From sequence record SRR22947727_2846: a stretch of DNA of 64,000 bases. One strand, given 5' to 3'. Position numbers and translations under genes: made by a program. The notes beneath the pieces are model-generated. The model saw only the letters and a list, made by a program, of their open reading frames with translations, ran no database searches and was not told the origin of the DNA. Position 1 is the stretch's first letter. Each line of letters begins with the position of its first letter. Below are positions 30,587 to 36,616 of the stretch, piece after piece.

Positions 30587-30719
30587 GGCTCGCGGGGCTG
30601 GAGTGTCCGGTGTCGAGGTCGAATCGTGACATAATGTGGAGGAAGGCCCTGCGAGTTCACATCCGTGAAACTTGACAAGGGTTTTCTTACTGCCCGTCAC
30701 ACAGTGGAGCAGGTGGCTT

Positions 30720-32519
30720 ATGGCTCAACGCACACCGTCCGAATCTCGTGCGGGAAAAAAGCCACAGAAACAGAGTCTTCTGGATCGTGTCCGCGGTTTT
30801 GGGCGTGGTTCTTCACAAACTGACAAGAAAGCAGCACCAACACCTGTGACCCCAGCAGCGAAAAAGCCCGCCACAAAGTCCGCACCTTCGAAGCCTGCTT
30901 CCACCCCAGCAGCCAAGAAAACTGCCGCAAAGAAGGCTCCCGCGACTAAAGCGCCAGCGCAAAAGGCACCTGCAAAGAAGCCTGCACCTGCGAAATCCGC
31001 CGCCCCAGCTCCTGCGGCGAAGAAGCCTGCAGCGAAAAAGCCGGTTGCCAAGAAGCCCGTTGCCCAGAAACCGGCAGCGAAGAAGCCTGCAGCAAAGAAG
31101 CCTGCGGTGGCAAAGTCTGCTGCTCCCAAGACCGCAGCCGCCAAGCCGACTACGAAGGCTCCCGCGAAGAAAGCTGCACCAGCCAAGGCGTCGACCGCGA
31201 AAGCTGCCGCTTCCAAAGCTCCTGCAAAGAAAACTCCCGCGAAAGCGGCTGCCGCGAAGGCTCCAGCAAAGGCCACACCTGCCAAGAAAGCTGCACCTGT
31301 TGCTCCCAAGTCGAGCGGTGCCACACGGGGCAAAAAAGCTTCGTCTGCGGCCGGTGTTCTCGACGGCGATGGGGACGATGAGCCCGACGTCATCGAGGTT
31401 GAGGATAAGTCCGGTGACACTGAGACCGATGTAGTTCCTGACGCTGTCGCAGAGAAACTGGGTGCCGAGATCATTGCCGGGCTTGCGGAAGCTGCTCTGG
31501 ATGACGAGGACGAGGTCGAAAAAGCTGTGCTGCCGCAGGGCGCCCTCGTGCTCTCGAGCACAGATGACGATGATGCACCCATCATTTCCACGACAATTAC
31601 CGGCGCCACCGCGGATCCTGTCAAGGACTACCTGAAGCAAATCGGTAAAGTCGCGCTCCTCAATGCTGAGCAAGAAGTGGAGCTCGCGTTGCGTATCGAA
31701 GCCGGCCTGTTTGCGGAAGAGAAGCTCTCCTCGCTCACCGCGTCACAGCGCACTACGAAGCTCGCGCGTGAACTGCACGAGATTGCGAAGGATGGCCAGC
31801 GGGCTAAGAACCACCTACTGGGAGCAAACCTGCGTCTGGTGGTGTCGCTGGCGAAGCGCTACACCGGTCGAGGAATGCAGTTCCTGGACCTCATTCAAGA
31901 GGGAAACCTTGGTCTGATTCGTGCTGTCGAGAAGTTCGACTACACCAAGGGCTTCAAGTTCTCGACCTACGCCACCTGGTGGATCCGGCAGGCGATCACG
32001 CGCGCCATGGCCGACCAAGCTCGCACGATTCGTATCCCCGTGCACATGGTCGAAGTCATCAACAAGCTCGCTCGTGTGCAGCGCCAAATGTTGCAAGACC
32101 TCGGTCGCGAGCCCACGCCGGAAGAGTTGGCTCGCGAACTGGACATGACGCCCGAAAAGGTCGTCGAAGTGCAGAAATATGGCCGCGAGCCCATCTCCCT
32201 TCACACCCCCTTGGGCGAGGACGGTGACAGCGAATTTGGTGATCTCATTGAGGACACCGAAGCAGTGGTTCCTGCGGATGCAGTGGGATTCACCATGCTG
32301 CAACGCCAGTTGGAAATGTTGCTCGATTCGCTCTCAGAGCGCGAAGCCGGCGTGATTCGTATGCGCTTCGGTCTTGGCGATGGCATGCCCAAGACCTTGG
32401 ATCAAATAGGAGACACCTTCGGTGTTACCCGTGAGCGCATCCGCCAAATAGAGTCCAAGACGATGGCGAAATTGCGCCACCCGTCCCGCTCGCAGGCTCT
32501 TCGCGACTACCTCGAGTAG
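30720..32519 (+). CDS. sigA: principal RNA polymerase sigma factor (SigA/HrdB) with long Lys/Ala/Pro-rich N-terminus
   Basis: [49 protein letters not shown] and TRERIRQIE motifs. Confidence 0.97.
31017..31106 (+). repeat. in-frame 15-bp tandem repeat encoding (A-K/Q-K-P-A/V) x6 within the sigA N-terminus
   Basis: gcgaagaagcctgca-like units; protein reads [30 protein letters not shown]. Confidence 0.8.
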
Positions 32520-32524
32520 GCCCT

Positions 32525-33796
32525 GTGGGTAAGTTTCCCTCGTTCGTTATCGCGAAACTTTTGCGGTTTCTCACGCGATTGCGTGGAGGGGGCTCGGCGT
32601 TCCCCGGCCTTGCACTCCTGAGAATGCGTCCCGATGTTCTCTCGGAGACCCTCGGAGCACTGCCACGCGGCACTGTGTTTGTGTCAGGGTCGAATGGAAA
32701 GTCGACGACCACCACAATGATGGCGTCCCTGATGCGCGCTCATGGTGTCTCCGTATTCACCAATCCCGCCGGCGGAAACCTGCCACAGGGCCTGGCGTCC
32801 GCGGTAGTGGGCGCTGCCAGCGTCACAGGTCGTGTCTCTGCGGACATCGCTGTCCTCGAGGTTGACGAGGCATACGCGGGCATGATTGCCGATGCCCTCG
32901 CTCCTGACTGGGTGGTGTTGACCAATCTCCAAGTCGATCAGCTCAATCGCTTCGGTGAACCCGAGAACGTGTATCGAATGCTGCGTGATCTTGCTGCTCG
33001 TGCACGAGTAGGTGTGATCGTCAATGCTGCGGATGCCAACCTTGTGGCGTTGGGAGCTGAGGTAGCTGGTGACGGCTCAAGGGTCGAGTTCGTCGACCTG
33101 TCCTCAGATGCTCTCGCCAGCGCCGCTCACGGTGTCGTGGCGGCACCACTGTTTGCTGAGGCGCCGGAGAGACTCCCTGGTGATTCCCTCGCGACCTTGG
33201 TCTCGACAGAAGGCCAGCGGGCGACAGTGAGACTCGGTGGCAGCACTTTCGAGCTCGATCTCCCCGCTCCTGGTTTGCATTACGCCGTGGATGCTGCACT
33301 CGCGCTGGGATGCCTGGCTGCGGTCCTCGGGAAGCCCATCGACCTCGACGCTGTGGGCACGGCAATGAGCGCTGGAGCGCCGGTCTATGGGCGCGGCGAG
33401 GTCATTACCCACAAGGGCGCGCAGATAGCGCTCACGATGATGAAAAACCTCCCCAGTTTGCAGGTCAACATCGATGCGATGAGCCATTCGCCGGAGCTTG
33501 TCTGGGTTGCAGTAGACGAGGGGACCCCCGATCCCTCCTGGCTCTATGAAGTCGATCTGGGCCCGATCGACCATGTGGACGTCCTCACCGGCACCAAAGC
33601 GTGGCAGTGGGCTGTCTTCCTCGACTACCGAGGGATTCCTTATGGCCAGGTCATTGAAGACTCCGCGGAGGCCCTCGCCGCCGTGCGATCGATGGCTCTG
33701 GAACGAGGCGTCACGGTATCGGCCATCGTCAATTACGAGCAGATGATGCTTATTCGGCGGCTTGCCGGCTATAAAGAACTTGAGGGCGCGCGATGA
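32525..33796 (+). CDS. murT: MurT-type Mur ligase (lipid II isoglutaminyl synthase family, DUF1727 C-terminus), divergent
   Basis: GSAFPG, GSNGKSTT P-loop, LEVDEA, NLQVDQLNRFGE, YGRGE, KN and DPSWLYEVD motifs; followed by a gatD-like gene. Confidence 0.88.
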   Translation: MGKFPSFVIAKLLRFLTRLRGGGSAFPGLALLRMRPDVLSETLGALPRGTVFVSGSNGKSTTTTMMASLMRAHGVSVFTNPAGGNLPQGLASAVVGAASVTGRVSADIAVLEVDEAYAGMIADALAPDWVVLTNLQVDQLNRFGEPENVYRMLRDLAARARVGVIVNAADANLVALGAEVAGDGSRVEFVDLSSDALASAAHGVVAAPLFAEAPERLPGDSLATLVSTEGQRATVRLGGSTFELDLPAPGLHYAVDAALALGCLAAVLGKPIDLDAVGTAMSAGAPVYGRGEVITHKGAQIALTMMKNLPSLQVNIDAMSHSPELVWVAVDEGTPDPSWLYEVDLGPIDHVDVLTGTKAWQWAVFLDYRGIPYGQVIEDSAEALAAVRSMALERGVTVSAIVNYEQMMLIRRLAGYKELEGAR

Positions 33797-34524
33797 CCCA
33801 GTGGTTCACCATCGCGAGAGTTCTTCCCGAGCGTCTCGGGCTGAATGGAAGCTCGGCATCTGCCGAGATTCTCGCCATGACATTGCGCCAGATGGGCCAT
33901 GAGGCGTCCATTGTTGATATTCATGGTCCAGCTGACGCGCCCAGCACCGTTGACATCGTGACCATCGGTAGCGGCTCTACCTCGCAACTTGCCCCTGCGG
34001 CGACAGATTTGATCGCTCTCGTGCGAACTTTTCAGCATTGGAAGAATTCTGGGGCGCACTGGGTTGCCATCGGAATGGGCTGGGATCTCCTGGGGGAGTC
34101 CTTGATGACTGCAGAGGGAGACAAAGTCCCTGGCGCAGGAATTTTTCCCTCTCGTGCCGATTACCGCGCCGGGAGGTTATCGGGCGAGGTTCGAGGCTCT
34201 GACTTCAAAGGTCGCGAGAGCGCCGGCTATATCAATCAGGTTGGCACGACTGAGTTGAAGGACGATGTAGGGCCGCTCATGACGCTGGAGGGTGCGCCCG
34301 AGGGATGGCCTGAACAGGAGGGGCTTCGTGCGCCACAACTGTTCGCCACCAGGCTTGGTGGGCCAGCGCTGGCCCTCAATCCGCACTGGGCGCTCGACAT
34401 TGTGACCGATGTGCTGGCGTCACGCGGGCTACAGCCACAACTTAACGATTTTCACACCCGCGTTGAGTCTGCGGCGGCTCGCGCACGAGCGTTGATCGTC
34501 GGACGGCTTAGTTCTCGTCGATAA
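33793..34524 (+). CDS. gatD: GatD/CobQ-like type 1 glutamine amidotransferase homolog, catalytic residues apparently lost
   Basis: GatD layout and GPxLxxNP motif kept, but AIGMGWDLLG replaces AICGGYQLLG and TRLGGP replaces TYxHGP; 4-bp overlap with murT. Confidence 0.8.
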   Translation: MTQWFTIARVLPERLGLNGSSASAEILAMTLRQMGHEASIVDIHGPADAPSTVDIVTIGSGSTSQLAPAATDLIALVRTFQHWKNSGAHWVAIGMGWDLLGESLMTAEGDKVPGAGIFPSRADYRAGRLSGEVRGSDFKGRESAGYINQVGTTELKDDVGPLMTLEGAPEGWPEQEGLRAPQLFATRLGGPALALNPHWALDIVTDVLASRGLQPQLNDFHTRVESAAARARALIVGRLSSRR

Positions 34525-35581
34525 ATTTTCGCGGCACGTGGGGAGCGAGCGAGGCCACCACCTCATCGCCGATCGTGTTGGCCCACGAGGCCCAGTCCTC
34601 GGCGCGAGGTGACGCCCCCTGTGGGTCACCCCAAAGCGTGATCCACTCACCCACTGGCGGAAGGGGTGAATCGCCCTCGGAGTGAATGATGAGGTGATCG
34701 GCGTCCACCGTCTCTATGGGGTAGCGAACTCCGTGGTGGCTGACCCAGCCGAGGCCAGCCTGCGGGGGTAAGAGCCCATCGCCAAATCCCATTCCGAGCG
34801 TCGCCCTGTCGCCTTGTGGGCTGTGGGAGAGCACCTGAGCGTGAACGGACATCACGGGTTCGAAGCCCATGTCCTGAGCTGTGCGGTCATCGAAGGGTGA
34901 CACCCCGTACACGATGATGCCAATACGAACCATGTCGAGTCGGGTTTCAGGTAAGTCCGCTGCAGCGGCGGACGCCGCAATGTGAAGAAGGGACGGAGAC
35001 AGCCCCGCATCCCGAGCGATGGCGACAGCGTCCTGGAATCGTTGCAGGGAGGACCTGTCCTCCTCCAGTGAGGTGTCCGCAAGGTGGGACCAGATTCCGA
35101 CGACAGTGATGTGACCCTCGGCCTCCAGGGCAGCCGCGTGACGCACGAGTTCTGGCCAGTGCTCTGCCAATGCTCCGTTTCGGTGGAGACCAGTGTCGAT
35201 TTTGAGGTGAACACGGGTGTTCATCGCTGGAGCCTGTTCCACCAGAAGATCGAGTTGCCAGCTTCCAGAAATTCCGAGGTCCAGTTTTGCCCGAGCTGCG
35301 GCACCGAAGTCACTCGTGGGGGAGTGCAGCCAGCACAGCAGGGGTAAGTTCGGCTCGGTCTCCCGCAGGGCTATCCCTTGGGCGATGTCGAGTACGGCGA
35401 GAGCGTCGGCGCCCGCTTCACGGGCGGCGCGGGCGAGGGCCTGGGCACCATGACCATACGCCTCGGACTTGACCGCGATCATGAGCTGGGCATCACCGGC
35501 CAGCGTGTCCTTTGCGTGGGAAACGTTGGCCCGAAATGCCGGGAGCGAAATTTCCGCGTAGCAGCGAGGTGCTAGTTCCAT
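34508..35581 (-). CDS. alanine racemase family protein with intact PLP barrel and degenerate C-terminal domain
   Basis: AVKSEAYGHG (PLP Lys38), HLKIDTGLHRNG, WSHLA and DMVRIGIIVYG motifs; no VSYG Tyr motif. Confidence 0.88.
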   Translation of the reverse strand: MELAPRCYAEISLPAFRANVSHAKDTLAGDAQLMIAVKSEAYGHGAQALARAAREAGADALAVLDIAQGIALRETEPNLPLLCWLHSPTSDFGAAARAKLDLGISGSWQLDLLVEQAPAMNTRVHLKIDTGLHRNGALAEHWPELVRHAAALEAEGHITVVGIWSHLADTSLEEDRSSLQRFQDAVAIARDAGLSPSLLHIAASAAAADLPETRLDMVRIGIIVYGVSPFDDRTAQDMGFEPVMSVHAQVLSHSPQGDRATLGMGFGDGLLPPQAGLGWVSHHGVRYPIETVDADHLIIHSEGDSPLPPVGEWITLWGDPQGASPRAEDWASWANTIGDEVVASLAPHVPRKFIDEN

Positions 35582-36222
35582 ATTTTGACCACCCGGGGCG
35601 CTAGCTGGGCGATGAGGAGCGCCACCGGACGAGAGGACCACTGTGACCATTCGGTCACGCTGGGATCAGTTCCCCAGATGGTCACCACGTCACCAAGATC
35701 GGCCGATTCATCTCCGATGTCGAGAACCATCTGGTCCATGGCGATCCGACCGGCAACCCTGTGTCGGATGCCGCCGAGAGAAACTTCGCCTTTCATGGAC
35801 GCGCTTCTTGGCACTCCGTCGGCGAATCCCACGCTCACCAATGCCAGGGTCGTTTCAGACGTTGTTCGGTACTGATAGCCATAGGACACCGGAGTTCCCG
35901 CGGGCACACGCTTCAGGGACACGACATCGCCTTCCAGGGTCACGACGGGACGAGGCGCTTCCAGCCAGCTTGTGGAACCAGGGGCTTCCTGTGACGTGGG
36001 GCTCAGAACAGACGCTTCTTTGTCTGCGGGTGAGTGCAGCGCCTGCGCCACACCGGCATCGCGAGCCAGTGCGCTCACGCGCTCAATGCCCAGGCCGTAC
36101 GCGTTGCAGCGCAAGTCGGGGATGAGTTCCCGCGAGGCCAGTCCGGCAAACGCTTCAACGAGTGCCTCCTGGGAGAGCAGTGCTCGTCGCAGTGGGGCGC
36201 TCAGACTAGCTGGCGCGGTCAT
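35572..36222 (-). CDS. alanine racemase C-terminal-domain protein with vestigial barrel
   Basis: PVSYGYQY, VGFADGVPR and GRIAMDQ motifs; N-terminal remnant DLRCNAYGLG lacks the PLP Lys. Confidence 0.88.
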   Translation of the reverse strand: MTAPASLSAPLRRALLSQEALVEAFAGLASRELIPDLRCNAYGLGIERVSALARDAGVAQALHSPADKEASVLSPTSQEAPGSTSWLEAPRPVVTLEGDVVSLKRVPAGTPVSYGYQYRTTSETTLALVSVGFADGVPRSASMKGEVSLGGIRHRVAGRIAMDQMVLDIGDESADLGDVVTIWGTDPSVTEWSQWSSRPVALLIAQLAPRVVKIWN

Positions 36223-36439
36223 TCCGTAGGCGGTCTGTCTCGTCGTGCCACCCGACCACCTTGTCGCCTAGCGACTCGCGATACTTGGCCGCGTGGTGAC
36301 CGCAGAACAAAAGTTCACCGCTGGCAAGAGTGACGCGCACATAAGCCTGCGCACCGCAGCTATCGCAGAGGTCCATTGCTCCCAAGGCTGCGGGGGTCTC
36401 GAGGGGTGCTTCTGTTGTCTCAGGTGCTGCGTACGACAT
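36206..36439 (-). CDS. small putative zinc-binding protein (CDSC...FCGHH), conserved near parE in Actinobacteria
   Basis: DLCDSCGAQAYVRV...LLFCGHH pattern; GAGGAG RBS. Confidence 0.85.
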   Translation of the reverse strand: MSYAAPETTEAPLETPAALGAMDLCDSCGAQAYVRVTLASGELLFCGHHAAKYRESLGDKVVGWHDETDRLRNDRAS

Positions 36440-36616
36440 TTCTTCTCCTCGAGCTCGTGTGGGCTGTTGCACTATTCCACCACGCCTTCTTGTCATTCAC
36501 CTGCCAGACTCTCCCAGTTTCGCCGACCGCGTATTGCGCCTTCTCGGCGGTGCTCGGGGTGTGGCGGGGTGGTGAGCAATAGGCTCGGGACGTTAGTTCG
36601 CAAGGAAAGAGAGACC

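Follow-up and report, generated by a model that had tools for sequence, protein, structure and literature searches.

A candidate heterodimeric racemase of the alanine racemase family encoded by two overlapping genes in Pontimonas and other Microbacteriaceae

Alanine racemase (Alr) is known from textbooks as a homodimer and serves as a target for antibiotics. In the canonical enzyme the C-terminal domain of each chain carries the second catalytic base, Tyr265′, together with Met312′/Asp313′. The related broad-spectrum, lysine and arginine racemases (Bsr/Lyr) are secreted. Among other enzymes, the trypanosome AdoMetDC is an active enzyme paired with a dead paralogue, the "prozyme", and the K69A and C360A mutants of ornithine decarboxylase (ODC) cross-complement each other. 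According to excerpts of PMC4542195, Tyr354 is the alanine-specificity residue and a phosphate ligand in Alr, and at its position VanT has Asn, BsrV has Pro, and two lysine racemases have Ala or Thr. The three architectures of Alr that are listed in passages of a paper from 2026 do not include a split one (PMC13726279), and no description of a split, heterodimeric or fused-pseudodimer alanine racemase was found in the literature searched. The words "racemase" and "MurT" are absent from the main text of the P. salivibrio genome paper (PMC6106888), the supplementary gene tables of which may list such genes.

In this work we have analyzed a window of 64,000 nt (the whole stretch of DNA under study), in which two overlapping genes, designated here B and A, were put forward in the original prediction as halves of one enzyme. 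Sequence comparison and structure modelling lead us to consider it likely (probability of about 75%) that B and A form a PLP-dependent amino-acid racemase, a member of the Alr family that is an obligate heterodimer and has a single composite active site, and the two proteins probably work only as a pair. This reading, already favored in the original prediction, draws its support from the reciprocal conservation of catalytic residues, the selection acting on both genes, their overlap, a predicted complex and the existence of a fused form. The coordinates of the relevant features are collected in Table 1.

Table 1 Features of the B/A gene pair and its neighbors (coordinates of the window)
Feature	Position (nt)	Strand	Description or basis
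Gene B	35572-36222	minus	216 aa; barrel stub and complete Alr C-terminal domain; upstream of A
Gene A	34508-35581	minus	357 aa from ATG; intact PLP barrel and degenerate C-terminal domain
B stop/A start overlap	35572-35581	minus	10 nt, ATGGAACTAG
B residues 1-88	35959-36222	minus	Ordered remnant of the first beta-alpha barrel units; motif DLRCNAYGLG
B Arg38 codon	36109-36111	minus	Replaces the PLP lysine; alignment
B VSYG motif	35878-35889	minus	Alignment to 1vfh and translation
B Tyr114 codon	35881-35883	minus	Equivalent of catalytic Tyr265′; alignment and translation
B AMDQ motif	35731-35742	minus	Met162-Asp163-Gln164, counterpart of Met312′/Asp313′; within GRIAMDQ
A Lys38 codon	35468-35470	minus	Schiff-base/catalytic lysine, VKSEAYGHG; invariant 25/25
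A Ser254-Pro255	34817-34822	minus	Site of the missing 17-residue Tyr segment; alignments
A ETVDADH	34694-34714	minus	Degenerate counterpart of GRxxMDQ; alignment and translation
A TIGDE	34562-34576	minus	Alignments and translation
A Asp339 codon	34565-34567	minus	Position of alanine-specificity Tyr354; alignments and translation
DUF7455 gene	36206-36496	minus	Directly upstream of B; Pfam PF24254, 77.2 bits
MurT-like Mur ligase	32525-33796	plus	Convergent with A/B; profile matches, synteny
GatD-like protein	33793-34524	plus	Without catalytic Cys and His; convergent; profile matches, synteny

The two frames, predicted to be intact, are both open on the minus strand in the ORF list, and the predicted 10-bp overlap between them is present in the window. 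With starts chosen by homology, a stop/start overlap is kept in all 28 usable orthologous loci, 23 of which have 10 nt in common and the other 5 have 4 nt, and B and A would be translated from overlapping cistrons. A longer version of A, starting at the open ATG at 35650, finds no support among the orthologues. The stop of the DUF7455 gene overlaps the start of B by 17 nt, so all three genes may belong to one operon. Among 11 syntenic loci of other genomes, 10 have the DUF7455 gene next to B, and in L035 it lies about 3.5 kb away. Synteny across genera extends over the whole order sigma factor, MurT-like ligase, dead GatD, A, B, the MurT-like and GatD-like genes being regarded as the context of the enzyme. 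No canonical alr is located within the 64,000-nt window.

For the alignments of both proteins the solved Streptomyces Alr 1vfh was used as the reference. Protein A gives a full match to Ala_racemase_N (Pfam PF01168, 173.9 bits, profile positions 1-220 of 220), a weak, N-truncated match to Ala_racemase_C (PF00842, 39.3 bits, profile positions 35-126) and a score just over the equivalog cut-off of NCBIfam alr (TIGR00492; 177.4 bits against 168). Its best solved matches are the Alr of S. lavendulae (1vfh) and S. coelicolor (5fac), with an E-value for Alr of 4.5e-54. Alignment and translation bear out that A retains Lys38 and the barrel motifs, has lost the VSYG segment and reads ETVDADH in place of GRxxMDQ. 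The barrel of the protein is of fold type III and includes the Schiff-base lysine as well as the Arg, His, Ser and Gly residues that bind PLP: it carries K38, Y42, K127, R134, H166, S204 and R219, which together with G221 and I222 are invariant in 25 of 25 copies. The gap at the Tyr segment, 17 or 19 columns wide, is found in all 25 aligned A copies; ADH replaces MDQ, with the Asp of MDQ retained. The Tyr base and the Met312′/Asp313′ pair are not found on the same chain as the barrel of A, and only A and B together supply the complete set.

The residues T336, I337, G338, D339 and E340 of A are likewise invariant (25/25), which means that the Tyr354 characteristic of alanine racemase is replaced by Asp339 in every copy. 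This Asp and the retained Asp of MDQ had both been overlooked in the original prediction. The Bsr/Lyr racemases have a small, non-acidic residue at the same position, A having Asp, and the matches of A to BsrV/Lyr in the PDB are weak (E 2.5e-17 to 1.4e-10). Membership of A in the VanT type was ruled out by its scores (142.9 against a cut-off of 460 for vanT-G-Cterm, 83.4 against 900 for vanT-CELN), by its domain content and by the presence of Asp rather than Asn.

Protein B gives a full match to Ala_racemase_C (106.5 bits) and scores 94.5 bits with the NCBIfam alr model, below its cut-off of 168. The description of B as a protein that keeps VSYG and GRIAMDQ, has lost most of the barrel and reads DLRCNAYGLG at the Lys motif is upheld by the alignment to 1vfh and by translation; where alanine racemase has a barrel with a Schiff-base lysine, B has a stub with Arg38. 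When B was modelled by itself with AF2 (mean pLDDT 88.5, pTM 0.85), the best Foldseek matches of the model were Alr chains (TMq 0.77-0.81), and residues 11-90 reached a pLDDT of 90-97. All 30 copies of B examined share six positions of the stub (D36, L37, R38, A41, G43, G45), V112, S113, Y114 and G115 of the Tyr loop, and M162, D163 and Q164. B is proposed to be the donor of the second catalytic base.

A complex of A, PLP and B was predicted with a score of 0.95 in each of three runs, the best of three controls scoring 0.00; the mark applied to this score is reached by 58 of 80 solved complexes and by 2 of 110 mismatched pairs. The runs agree in at least 90% of contacts, with a partner pLDDT of at least 91. 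The modelled interface comprises residues 38-40, 42, 129, 131-136 and 168-170 of A and 110-116 and 161-164 of B. As expected from the original prediction, the Tyr loop of B is placed on Lys38 of A, in the canonical head-to-tail geometry, and R38 of B contacts residue 294 of A, residues 294-295 facing the B stub. Such a result may reflect only likeness to the solved Alr homodimers, the existence of which makes a pass expected for any Alr-like pair.

In the proposed mechanism B and A would pair head to tail, as in the Alr homodimer. The barrel of A would bind PLP on Lys38, supported by Tyr42, Arg134, His166, Ser204, Arg219 and Gly221, and Lys38 would act as one catalytic base. The C-terminal domain of B would enter this barrel, with Tyr114 serving as the second base and Met162/Asp163 completing the pocket. 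The mirror-image site would be dead and structural, the B stub with Arg38 packing on the degenerate C-terminal domain of A. Judged by the sequences, at most one complete site is permitted per A:B pair, and we infer that the pair performs both binding and catalysis.

Gene B has been found at full length in 33 of the 37 genomes of the genus (Pontimonas in named records), and A follows it in 29 of 30 loci, the contig of the thirtieth stopping just past B. Outside the genus the pair occurs in at least 15 genera of the Microbacteriaceae, in each case with B ahead of A; this lower bound is drawn from 150 of 363 matches. Motif searches in 12 further pairs, 11 from other genera and one from a congener, detected the Lys motif in all 12 A copies and VSYG or MDQ in none; VSY[GC] and AMD[QY] were present in all 12 B copies, and Arg stands at the Lys position in 11 of them, the B copy of L041 giving no match to that motif. 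The A/B pattern is the same in every orthologue examined and is therefore far beyond chance. The claim of reciprocal loss instead of pseudogenisation agrees with these data, since 25 of 25 A copies lack the Tyr segment and 30 of 30 B copies have Tyr114, MDQ and Arg38.

For pairs with a finite dS, which reaches values above 1 in these comparisons, A has a dN/dS of 0.06-0.19 and B one of 0.10-0.27; for the degenerate parts it is 0.09-0.27 (C-terminal domain of A) and 0.20-0.53 (B stub). Both genes, degenerate halves included, are under purifying selection, and the relaxed selection that would have contradicted the original prediction is not seen in the range of 0.06-0.27. The frames are unbroken in 25 complete A and 30 B copies with identity down to 39%; a single A copy out of 29 (L028) lies in two separate frames, which could stem from decay or from an assembly error. 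The pair is also present in two single-contig genomes (G015 and G073). In a relative with about 94-95% identity, contigs from RNA libraries cover the entire stretch and run through both genes without indels; this is weak evidence, attesting only to presence in RNA libraries rather than to a transcript, its ends or co-transcription. The B/A arrangement is long maintained in Microbacteriaceae.

A separate canonical alr, the presence of which was a point raised in the original prediction, exists in the nearest genome (G001, 247.7 bits) and in 31 of 37 congeners. The A and B of this nearest genome are 98% identical to those of the window, and the organism of the window is therefore expected to possess a canonical alr too. 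In the G073 genome (0.9 Mb, one contig, 98% complete) the sole Alr-family gene is the B-then-A pair, located at the syntenic site. Four small Microbacteriaceae genomes have a single ordinary alr without the pair.

In two genomes (G078 and G174) the site normally taken by alr carries a fused A-B frame of about 600-630 aa, which is their sole Alr, and in a third (G145) such a fusion accompanies other Alr genes. The fused chain (L044-L046) has the order A then B and exhibits the same reciprocal loss as the pair: its first half has kept the Lys and lost the Tyr loop, and its second half consists of a short stub followed by VSYG and AMDQ, with Ser at the Lys position in L044. It differs from the pair in being one chain, A then B, with Tyr354 kept (TINYE), in contrast to two genes and Asp339. 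Its barrel nests inside the ordinary Alr1 lineage in the barrel tree (support 96/91 and 96/89), so the fused form is probably of independent origin.

A full-length second Alr of what we call the TIGDE type is encoded in tandem behind an ordinary alr in other Microbacteriaceae (L048-L052). It resembles A in the clade marks TIGDE, WSHLAD and AVLD and in grouping with A in the barrel tree; it is unlike A in being a single gene product with its own VSYG and AMDQ, and hence able to form an ordinary homodimer. In the barrel tree this type falls among the A copies with moderate support, which at face value requires several independent losses of the Tyr loop. In the C-domain tree the forks are weak (50/64), and for this reason no donor lineage is claimed for B. 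The pair would have arisen by duplication followed by reciprocal loss within the lineage of the TIGDE-type paralogue. Duplication with complementary degeneration appears to have taken place twice in Microbacteriaceae, once yielding two genes and once a fusion.

Since neither gene has the full set of residues defining a functional Alr, and one A copy (L028) lies in two frames, the genes might be taken for functionless remnants of a tandem duplication or for an assembly artefact. We regard this as highly improbable: decay is at odds with the low dN/dS over pairs with dS up to above 1 and with the intact frames in 25 A and 30 B copies down to 39% identity, and an artefact is at odds with the single-contig genomes. 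A pseudogene was ruled out by dN/dS together with conservation, and a single frameshifted alr was rejected because the gene for the C-terminal domain precedes that for the barrel, an order which no frameshift in one alr can yield.

Two further explanations grant function to the genes and dispute their partnership. Protein A could work without B, as a homodimer or monomer, using Lys38 with another base from the barrel or a one-base PLP reaction, B being a separate, non-catalytic protein. By itself A does exceed the NCBIfam alr cut-off, and an ornithine racemase of the Alr superfamily that lacks the Tyr is reported, in the part of PMC13397332 consulted, to use a Cys of its own barrel, so a barrel lacking the partner Tyr is not necessarily inactive. 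By count, the invariant Asp169 of A, three residues past His166, occupies the aligned position of this Cys. The full-length TIGDE-type paralogues have Asp169 and still keep the Tyr loop, however, and B has invariant Tyr114 and AMDQ (30/30) although it contains no complete barrel in which they could act. The two genes are always found together and overlapping, and the fused form joins both halves in one chain; we consider an independently acting A unlikely. Slightly less likely still is that B partners the canonical Alr1, instead of or besides A, as a regulator or half-site partner. The C-terminal domain of B shares about 40% identity with its counterpart in the canonical Alr from the nearest genome, and most genomes of the genus have both canonical alr and the pair, but G073 has the pair and no canonical alr, B is translationally linked to A while alr1 lies on another contig, and the complex model sets the B stub against the matching degenerate C-terminal domain of A. 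The heterodimer of A and B is the reading which we prefer.

The substrate of the heterodimer is probably alanine, bound in a pocket that the sequence suggests to be widened and more acidic. Turnover of alanine is probably retained, given the complete genome in which no other Alr-family gene accompanies the pair. Asp169, a second clade-specific acidic residue, lies in the modelled interface, and with Asp339 it suggests a widened pocket, in which polar or basic side chains could be accommodated as well. A tentative and rather doubtful extension is that B/A and its TIGDE-type cousins make the D-diamino acid of the B-type cross-bridge of Microbacteriaceae (D-2,4-diaminobutyrate, D-ornithine or D-lysine), working with the neighboring MurT-like ligase and dead GatD, the ligase attaching the bridge amino acid at the D-glutamate alpha-carboxyl rather than amidating it. 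It is suggested by Asp339 in place of the specificity Tyr and Asp169 in the interface, by the synteny across genera of the locus with the sigma factor, MurT-like ligase and dead GatD, and by D-Ala-D-Dab in the cell wall of a close relative (portions of PMC4156110); the available text of PMC8225329 names no dedicated Dab racemase for cell walls. It is weakened by the four small genomes with one ordinary alr and no pair, and by the genome in which the pair is the sole Alr-family gene and must cover D-alanine as well.

If true, the proposal would provide a natural two-base active site divided over two individually incomplete proteins, a clean case of complementary degeneration after duplication within one active site, and a natural one-site enzyme for the separate study of each catalytic base. 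Annotation pipelines will label A as "alanine racemase" and treat B as a mere fragment; with the pair or the fusion being the sole Alr in some genomes, metabolic reconstructions could wrongly call these genomes defective. Given the altered acidic pocket and the cell-wall neighbors, a connection with the unusual B-type peptidoglycan can be tested directly.

In comparison with known systems, A/B resembles the homodimeric Alr/DadX in its fold, in the PLP-binding residues of A, in the provision of Tyr and Met-Asp in trans and in the head-to-tail geometry of the model. It differs from them in consisting of two different chains with, as predicted from sequence and model, one complete and one dead site instead of two sites, and in having Asp where Alr has Tyr354. 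The replacement of Tyr354 is shared with the serine racemase VanT (Asp in A, Asn in VanT), from which A differs in lacking the N-terminal membrane domain and starting directly with the barrel; none of the replacements named for this position in the excerpts of PMC4542195 is acidic. Like AdoMetDC/prozyme and the complementing ODC mutants, the A/B pair would share a site over the dimer interface and need two different chains, but unlike in those systems neither chain is complete alone, and the pair is a natural, bacterial one with the features of a racemase.

Ala_racemase_N was matched in full by A, the downstream gene product (Pfam, 173.9 bits), in which Ala_racemase_C is weak and truncated (39.3 bits, profile 35-126), and Ala_racemase_C was matched in full by B, the product of the upstream gene (106.5 bits). 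On the NCBIfam alr model (cut-off 168) A scored 177.4 and B 94.5, and the best solved relative of both was the Streptomyces alanine racemase (Alr) 1vfh (E=4.5e-54 for A, E=5e-26 for B). In the window sequence the stop of B and the start of A overlap by 10 nt, ATGGAACTAG; the two intact frames with a 10-bp overlap of the original prediction are thus present as ORFs.

When A was aligned with 1vfh and the canonical Alr from the nearest genome, it was seen to retain Lys38, Tyr42, Lys127, Arg134, His166, Ser204, Arg219 and Gly221. A gap of 17 columns falls exactly at the site of the catalytic Tyr (VSYG), GRxxMDQ has turned into ETVDADH, and TIAYE into TIGDE, so that Asp339 occupies the Tyr354 position. 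The first ~88 residues of B align to the initial beta-alpha units of the barrel, the PLP lysine being replaced by Arg38 in the motif DLRCNAYGLG, and directly after this stub comes an entire C-terminal domain, in which VSYG (Tyr114) and GRIAMDQ are both present. Such a division, with Lys38 and the barrel kept in A and the Tyr loop and GRIAMDQ in B, had been predicted for both proteins and is seen in alignment and translation alike. Modelled alone by AlphaFold2, B is confident (mean pLDDT 88.5, pTM 0.85) with an ordered stub (block pLDDT 90-97, residues 11-90), and in Foldseek the model aligns across the full length of Alr chains (TMq 0.77-0.81).

Positions of the racemase genes, their neighbours and the fused racemase frames (window positions unless a locus is named)
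Feature	Location	Strand	Description
Sigma factor	30672-32519	plus	principal type
MurT-like Mur ligase and GatD-like protein	32525-34524	plus	adjoin the racemase pair
A	34508-35581	minus	ORF, 357 aa, downstream of B
B	35572-36222	minus	ORF, 216 aa, upstream of A
DUF7455 gene	36206-36496	minus	small protein with Cys/His motifs; stop overlaps B start by 17 nt
Fused frame	L044 3968-5857	minus	A-like and B-like halves, between glmS and tsaE-like genes (usual alr site)
Fused frame	L046 3983-5848	minus	A-like and B-like halves, between glmS and tsaE-like genes (usual alr site)
Fused frame	L045		A-like and B-like halves in a single frame of ~600-630 aa

The nearest genome compared, G001 (63% of sampled words common with the window), has the same pair, 98% identical, and a canonical alr on a separate contig (247.7 bits); the check for such a gene elsewhere, proposed with the original prediction, found a separate canonical-type match in 31/37 genomes of the genus. 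Full-length B occurs in 33 of these 37 and a partial copy in one more; no copy was found in the other three, G006 (59% complete), G010 (56%) and G012 (86%). A lies downstream of B in 29/30 fetched loci, the contig of the thirtieth ending just past B. Twenty-five of the 29 A copies are complete, three are truncated where their contigs end, and that of locus L028 is split over two frames. K38, Y42, K127, R134, H166, S204, R219, G221, I222 and D339 are invariant in the complete copies, and the Tyr segment is absent from 25/25 of them in the alignment; R38, Y114, M162, D163 and Q164 are invariant in 30 B copies. With starts chosen by homology, the stop/start overlap is 10 nt in 23/28 loci and 4 nt in 5/28.

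In 201 genomes drawn from the family Microbacteriaceae, full-length B-type matches were found in at least 16 genomes of at least 12 other genera, these lower bounds being counted among the 150 listed of 363 matches; the pair is also present in three further genera (g36, g108 and g57). All 11 loci fetched from other genomes have the order B then A, and the A/B residue pattern recurs in pairs of other genomes. At E <= 1e-30 full-length B was not found in 148 genomes from other families of the same class, four of them unpublished (G263, G288, G292 and G299). Of the other-family matches listed, only that in G331 begins before B profile position 89; it covers profile 49-215 in a 510-aa frame.

The neighbourhood consists of genes for the sigma factor, MurT-like and GatD-like proteins, then A, B and DUF7455 on the opposite strand, then a parE-like gene, and it surrounds the pair in 10/11 loci of other genomes and in the partly fetched L138, some flanks being cut. 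The DUF7455 gene directly adjoins B upstream in 10/11 syntenic loci of other genomes and for this reason may be co-transcribed with the pair. The MurT-like ligase scored 80 bits on the MurT model (cut-off 800); comparison of the GatD-like protein with solved GatD chains puts Gly at both the catalytic Cys and the catalytic His sites, and among nine aligned family homologues the Cys is absent from all and the His present in seven. Their sequences suggest a ligase whose glutaminase partner is dead. The sigma factor carries an N-terminal region of ~200 residues, in which Ala, Lys and Pro abound and AKKPA-like repeats occur, ahead of its conserved sigma-70 domains. The stretch is covered by contigs of four metatranscriptome libraries, from a relative ~94-95% identical; the A/B and B/DUF7455 junctions are each bridged by single contigs, and neither insertions nor deletions turned up in the contigs across the stretch. 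Since contigs cannot show a transcript, they give weak support for expression of the pair.

The complex was modelled from A, B and PLP jointly, with a separate alignment supplied for each protein. All three runs gave a complex score of 0.95, against 0.00 for the best of three controls; the mark for a pass is reached by 58/80 solved complexes and 2/110 mismatched pairs. Contacts agree to at least 90% between runs, with partner pLDDT of at least 91. The confident interface joins A residues 38-40, 42, 129, 131-136 and 168-170 with B residues 110-116 (Tyr114 loop) and 161-164 (AMDQ). The mirror site comprises, in the model, residues 36, 38-40, 42 and 64-66 of the B stub and 266-274 and 294-295 of A, with A 294 - B 38 among the close pairs named. 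Solved Alr homodimers exist, and the pass may reflect no more than likeness to them; as modelled, the A/B pair fits canonical Alr geometry, and the pass speaks to this fit, not to binding.

Among pairs whose dS was finite, Nei-Gojobori dN/dS spans 0.06-0.19 in A and 0.10-0.27 in B, and in the degenerate parts 0.09-0.27 (A C-domain) and 0.20-0.53 (B stub); these parts are constrained too. Decay of A and B into pseudogenes, already denied in the original prediction, is ruled out by the values for the two genes (0.06-0.27). That A works by itself, without B, we consider improbable; this reading is kept alive by an Alr-superfamily ornithine racemase which has no such Tyr and reportedly uses a barrel Cys (PMC13397332). 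The heterodimer of A and B that had been proposed is supported by residue complementarity, conservation and selection, the model fitting the canonical geometry, and we put the probability of this Alr-type architecture at about 75%.

Three kinds of relative bear on the function and origin of the pair. In the very small genome G073 (0.9 Mb, single contig, 98% complete) a B-then-A pair lying between parE-like and GatD-like genes (L138) accounts for every Alr-family match, and an ordinary alr was not found; the pair therefore presumably has to supply D-alanine there. It is divergent, B reading VSYC and AMDY and A reading TIDD at the Tyr354 position. The sole Alr-family match of G078 and G174 (99% complete) is one fused frame of ~600-630 aa, whose first half has the Lys and lacks the Tyr loop and whose second half is a short stub followed by VSYG and AMDQ; in G145 this fusion accompanies a full-length alr and a B/A pair. 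To judge by the gene content of G078 and G174, an enzyme with one site can be the only Alr of a genome. The fused form probably arose separately from the B/A pair, since its barrels nest inside the ordinary Alr1 lineage in the barrel tree (support 96/91 and 96/89) and Tyr354 is kept (TINYE). In loci L048-L052 an ordinary alr (TINYE or TIGYE) is followed in tandem by a full-length TIGDE-type alr, which retains VSYG and AMDQ, has the clade marks of A (TIGDE, WSHLAD, AVLD) and falls together with A in the barrel tree. From these common marks and the grouping, A can be placed as a derived member of the full-length TIGDE-type paralogue lineage; no source lineage was resolved for the C-domain of B. 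In L049 and L051 no stop separates the second alr frame from a tsaE-like P-loop protein, and the two may be fused.

Tyr354 is a reported determinant of alanine specificity, and its change to Asn raised serine racemisation 62-fold (PMC4542195). A and its full-length TIGDE cousins have an invariant Gly-Asp at this position and share a clade-specific Asp169 inside the modelled interface, because of which a wider and more acidic pocket is expected in A. Alanine is probably still a substrate, since G073 has the pair alone, and polar or basic substrates would be possible. It seems unlikely that the pair makes a D-diamino acid of the B-type cross-bridge: D-Ala-D-Dab in the wall of a relative (PMC4156110), the available part of PMC8225329, which names no dedicated Dab racemase for walls, and the neighbouring cell-wall genes (MurT-like, GatD-like) count for this idea, and four small family genomes with one ordinary alr alone, without the pair, count against it. 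A vanT resistance gene has been reported in a vancomycin-sensitive Microbacteriaceae strain (PMC12275160); A scores 142.9 bits on NCBIfam vanT-G-Cterm (cut-off 460), and such annotations may therefore be TIGDE-type racemases picked up as vanT.

Searches of the literature turned up no account of an alanine racemase that is split, heterodimeric or pseudodimeric, and the available part of PMC13726279 (2026) counts three architectures of Alr, namely canonical, VanT and MurF'-Alr. The pair is a variant within the alanine racemase family, split in two genes. At the Tyr354 position the reported residues are Asn in VanT, Pro in BsrV and Ala or Thr in two lysine racemases (PMC4542195), and A differs from all of these enzymes in having Asp.
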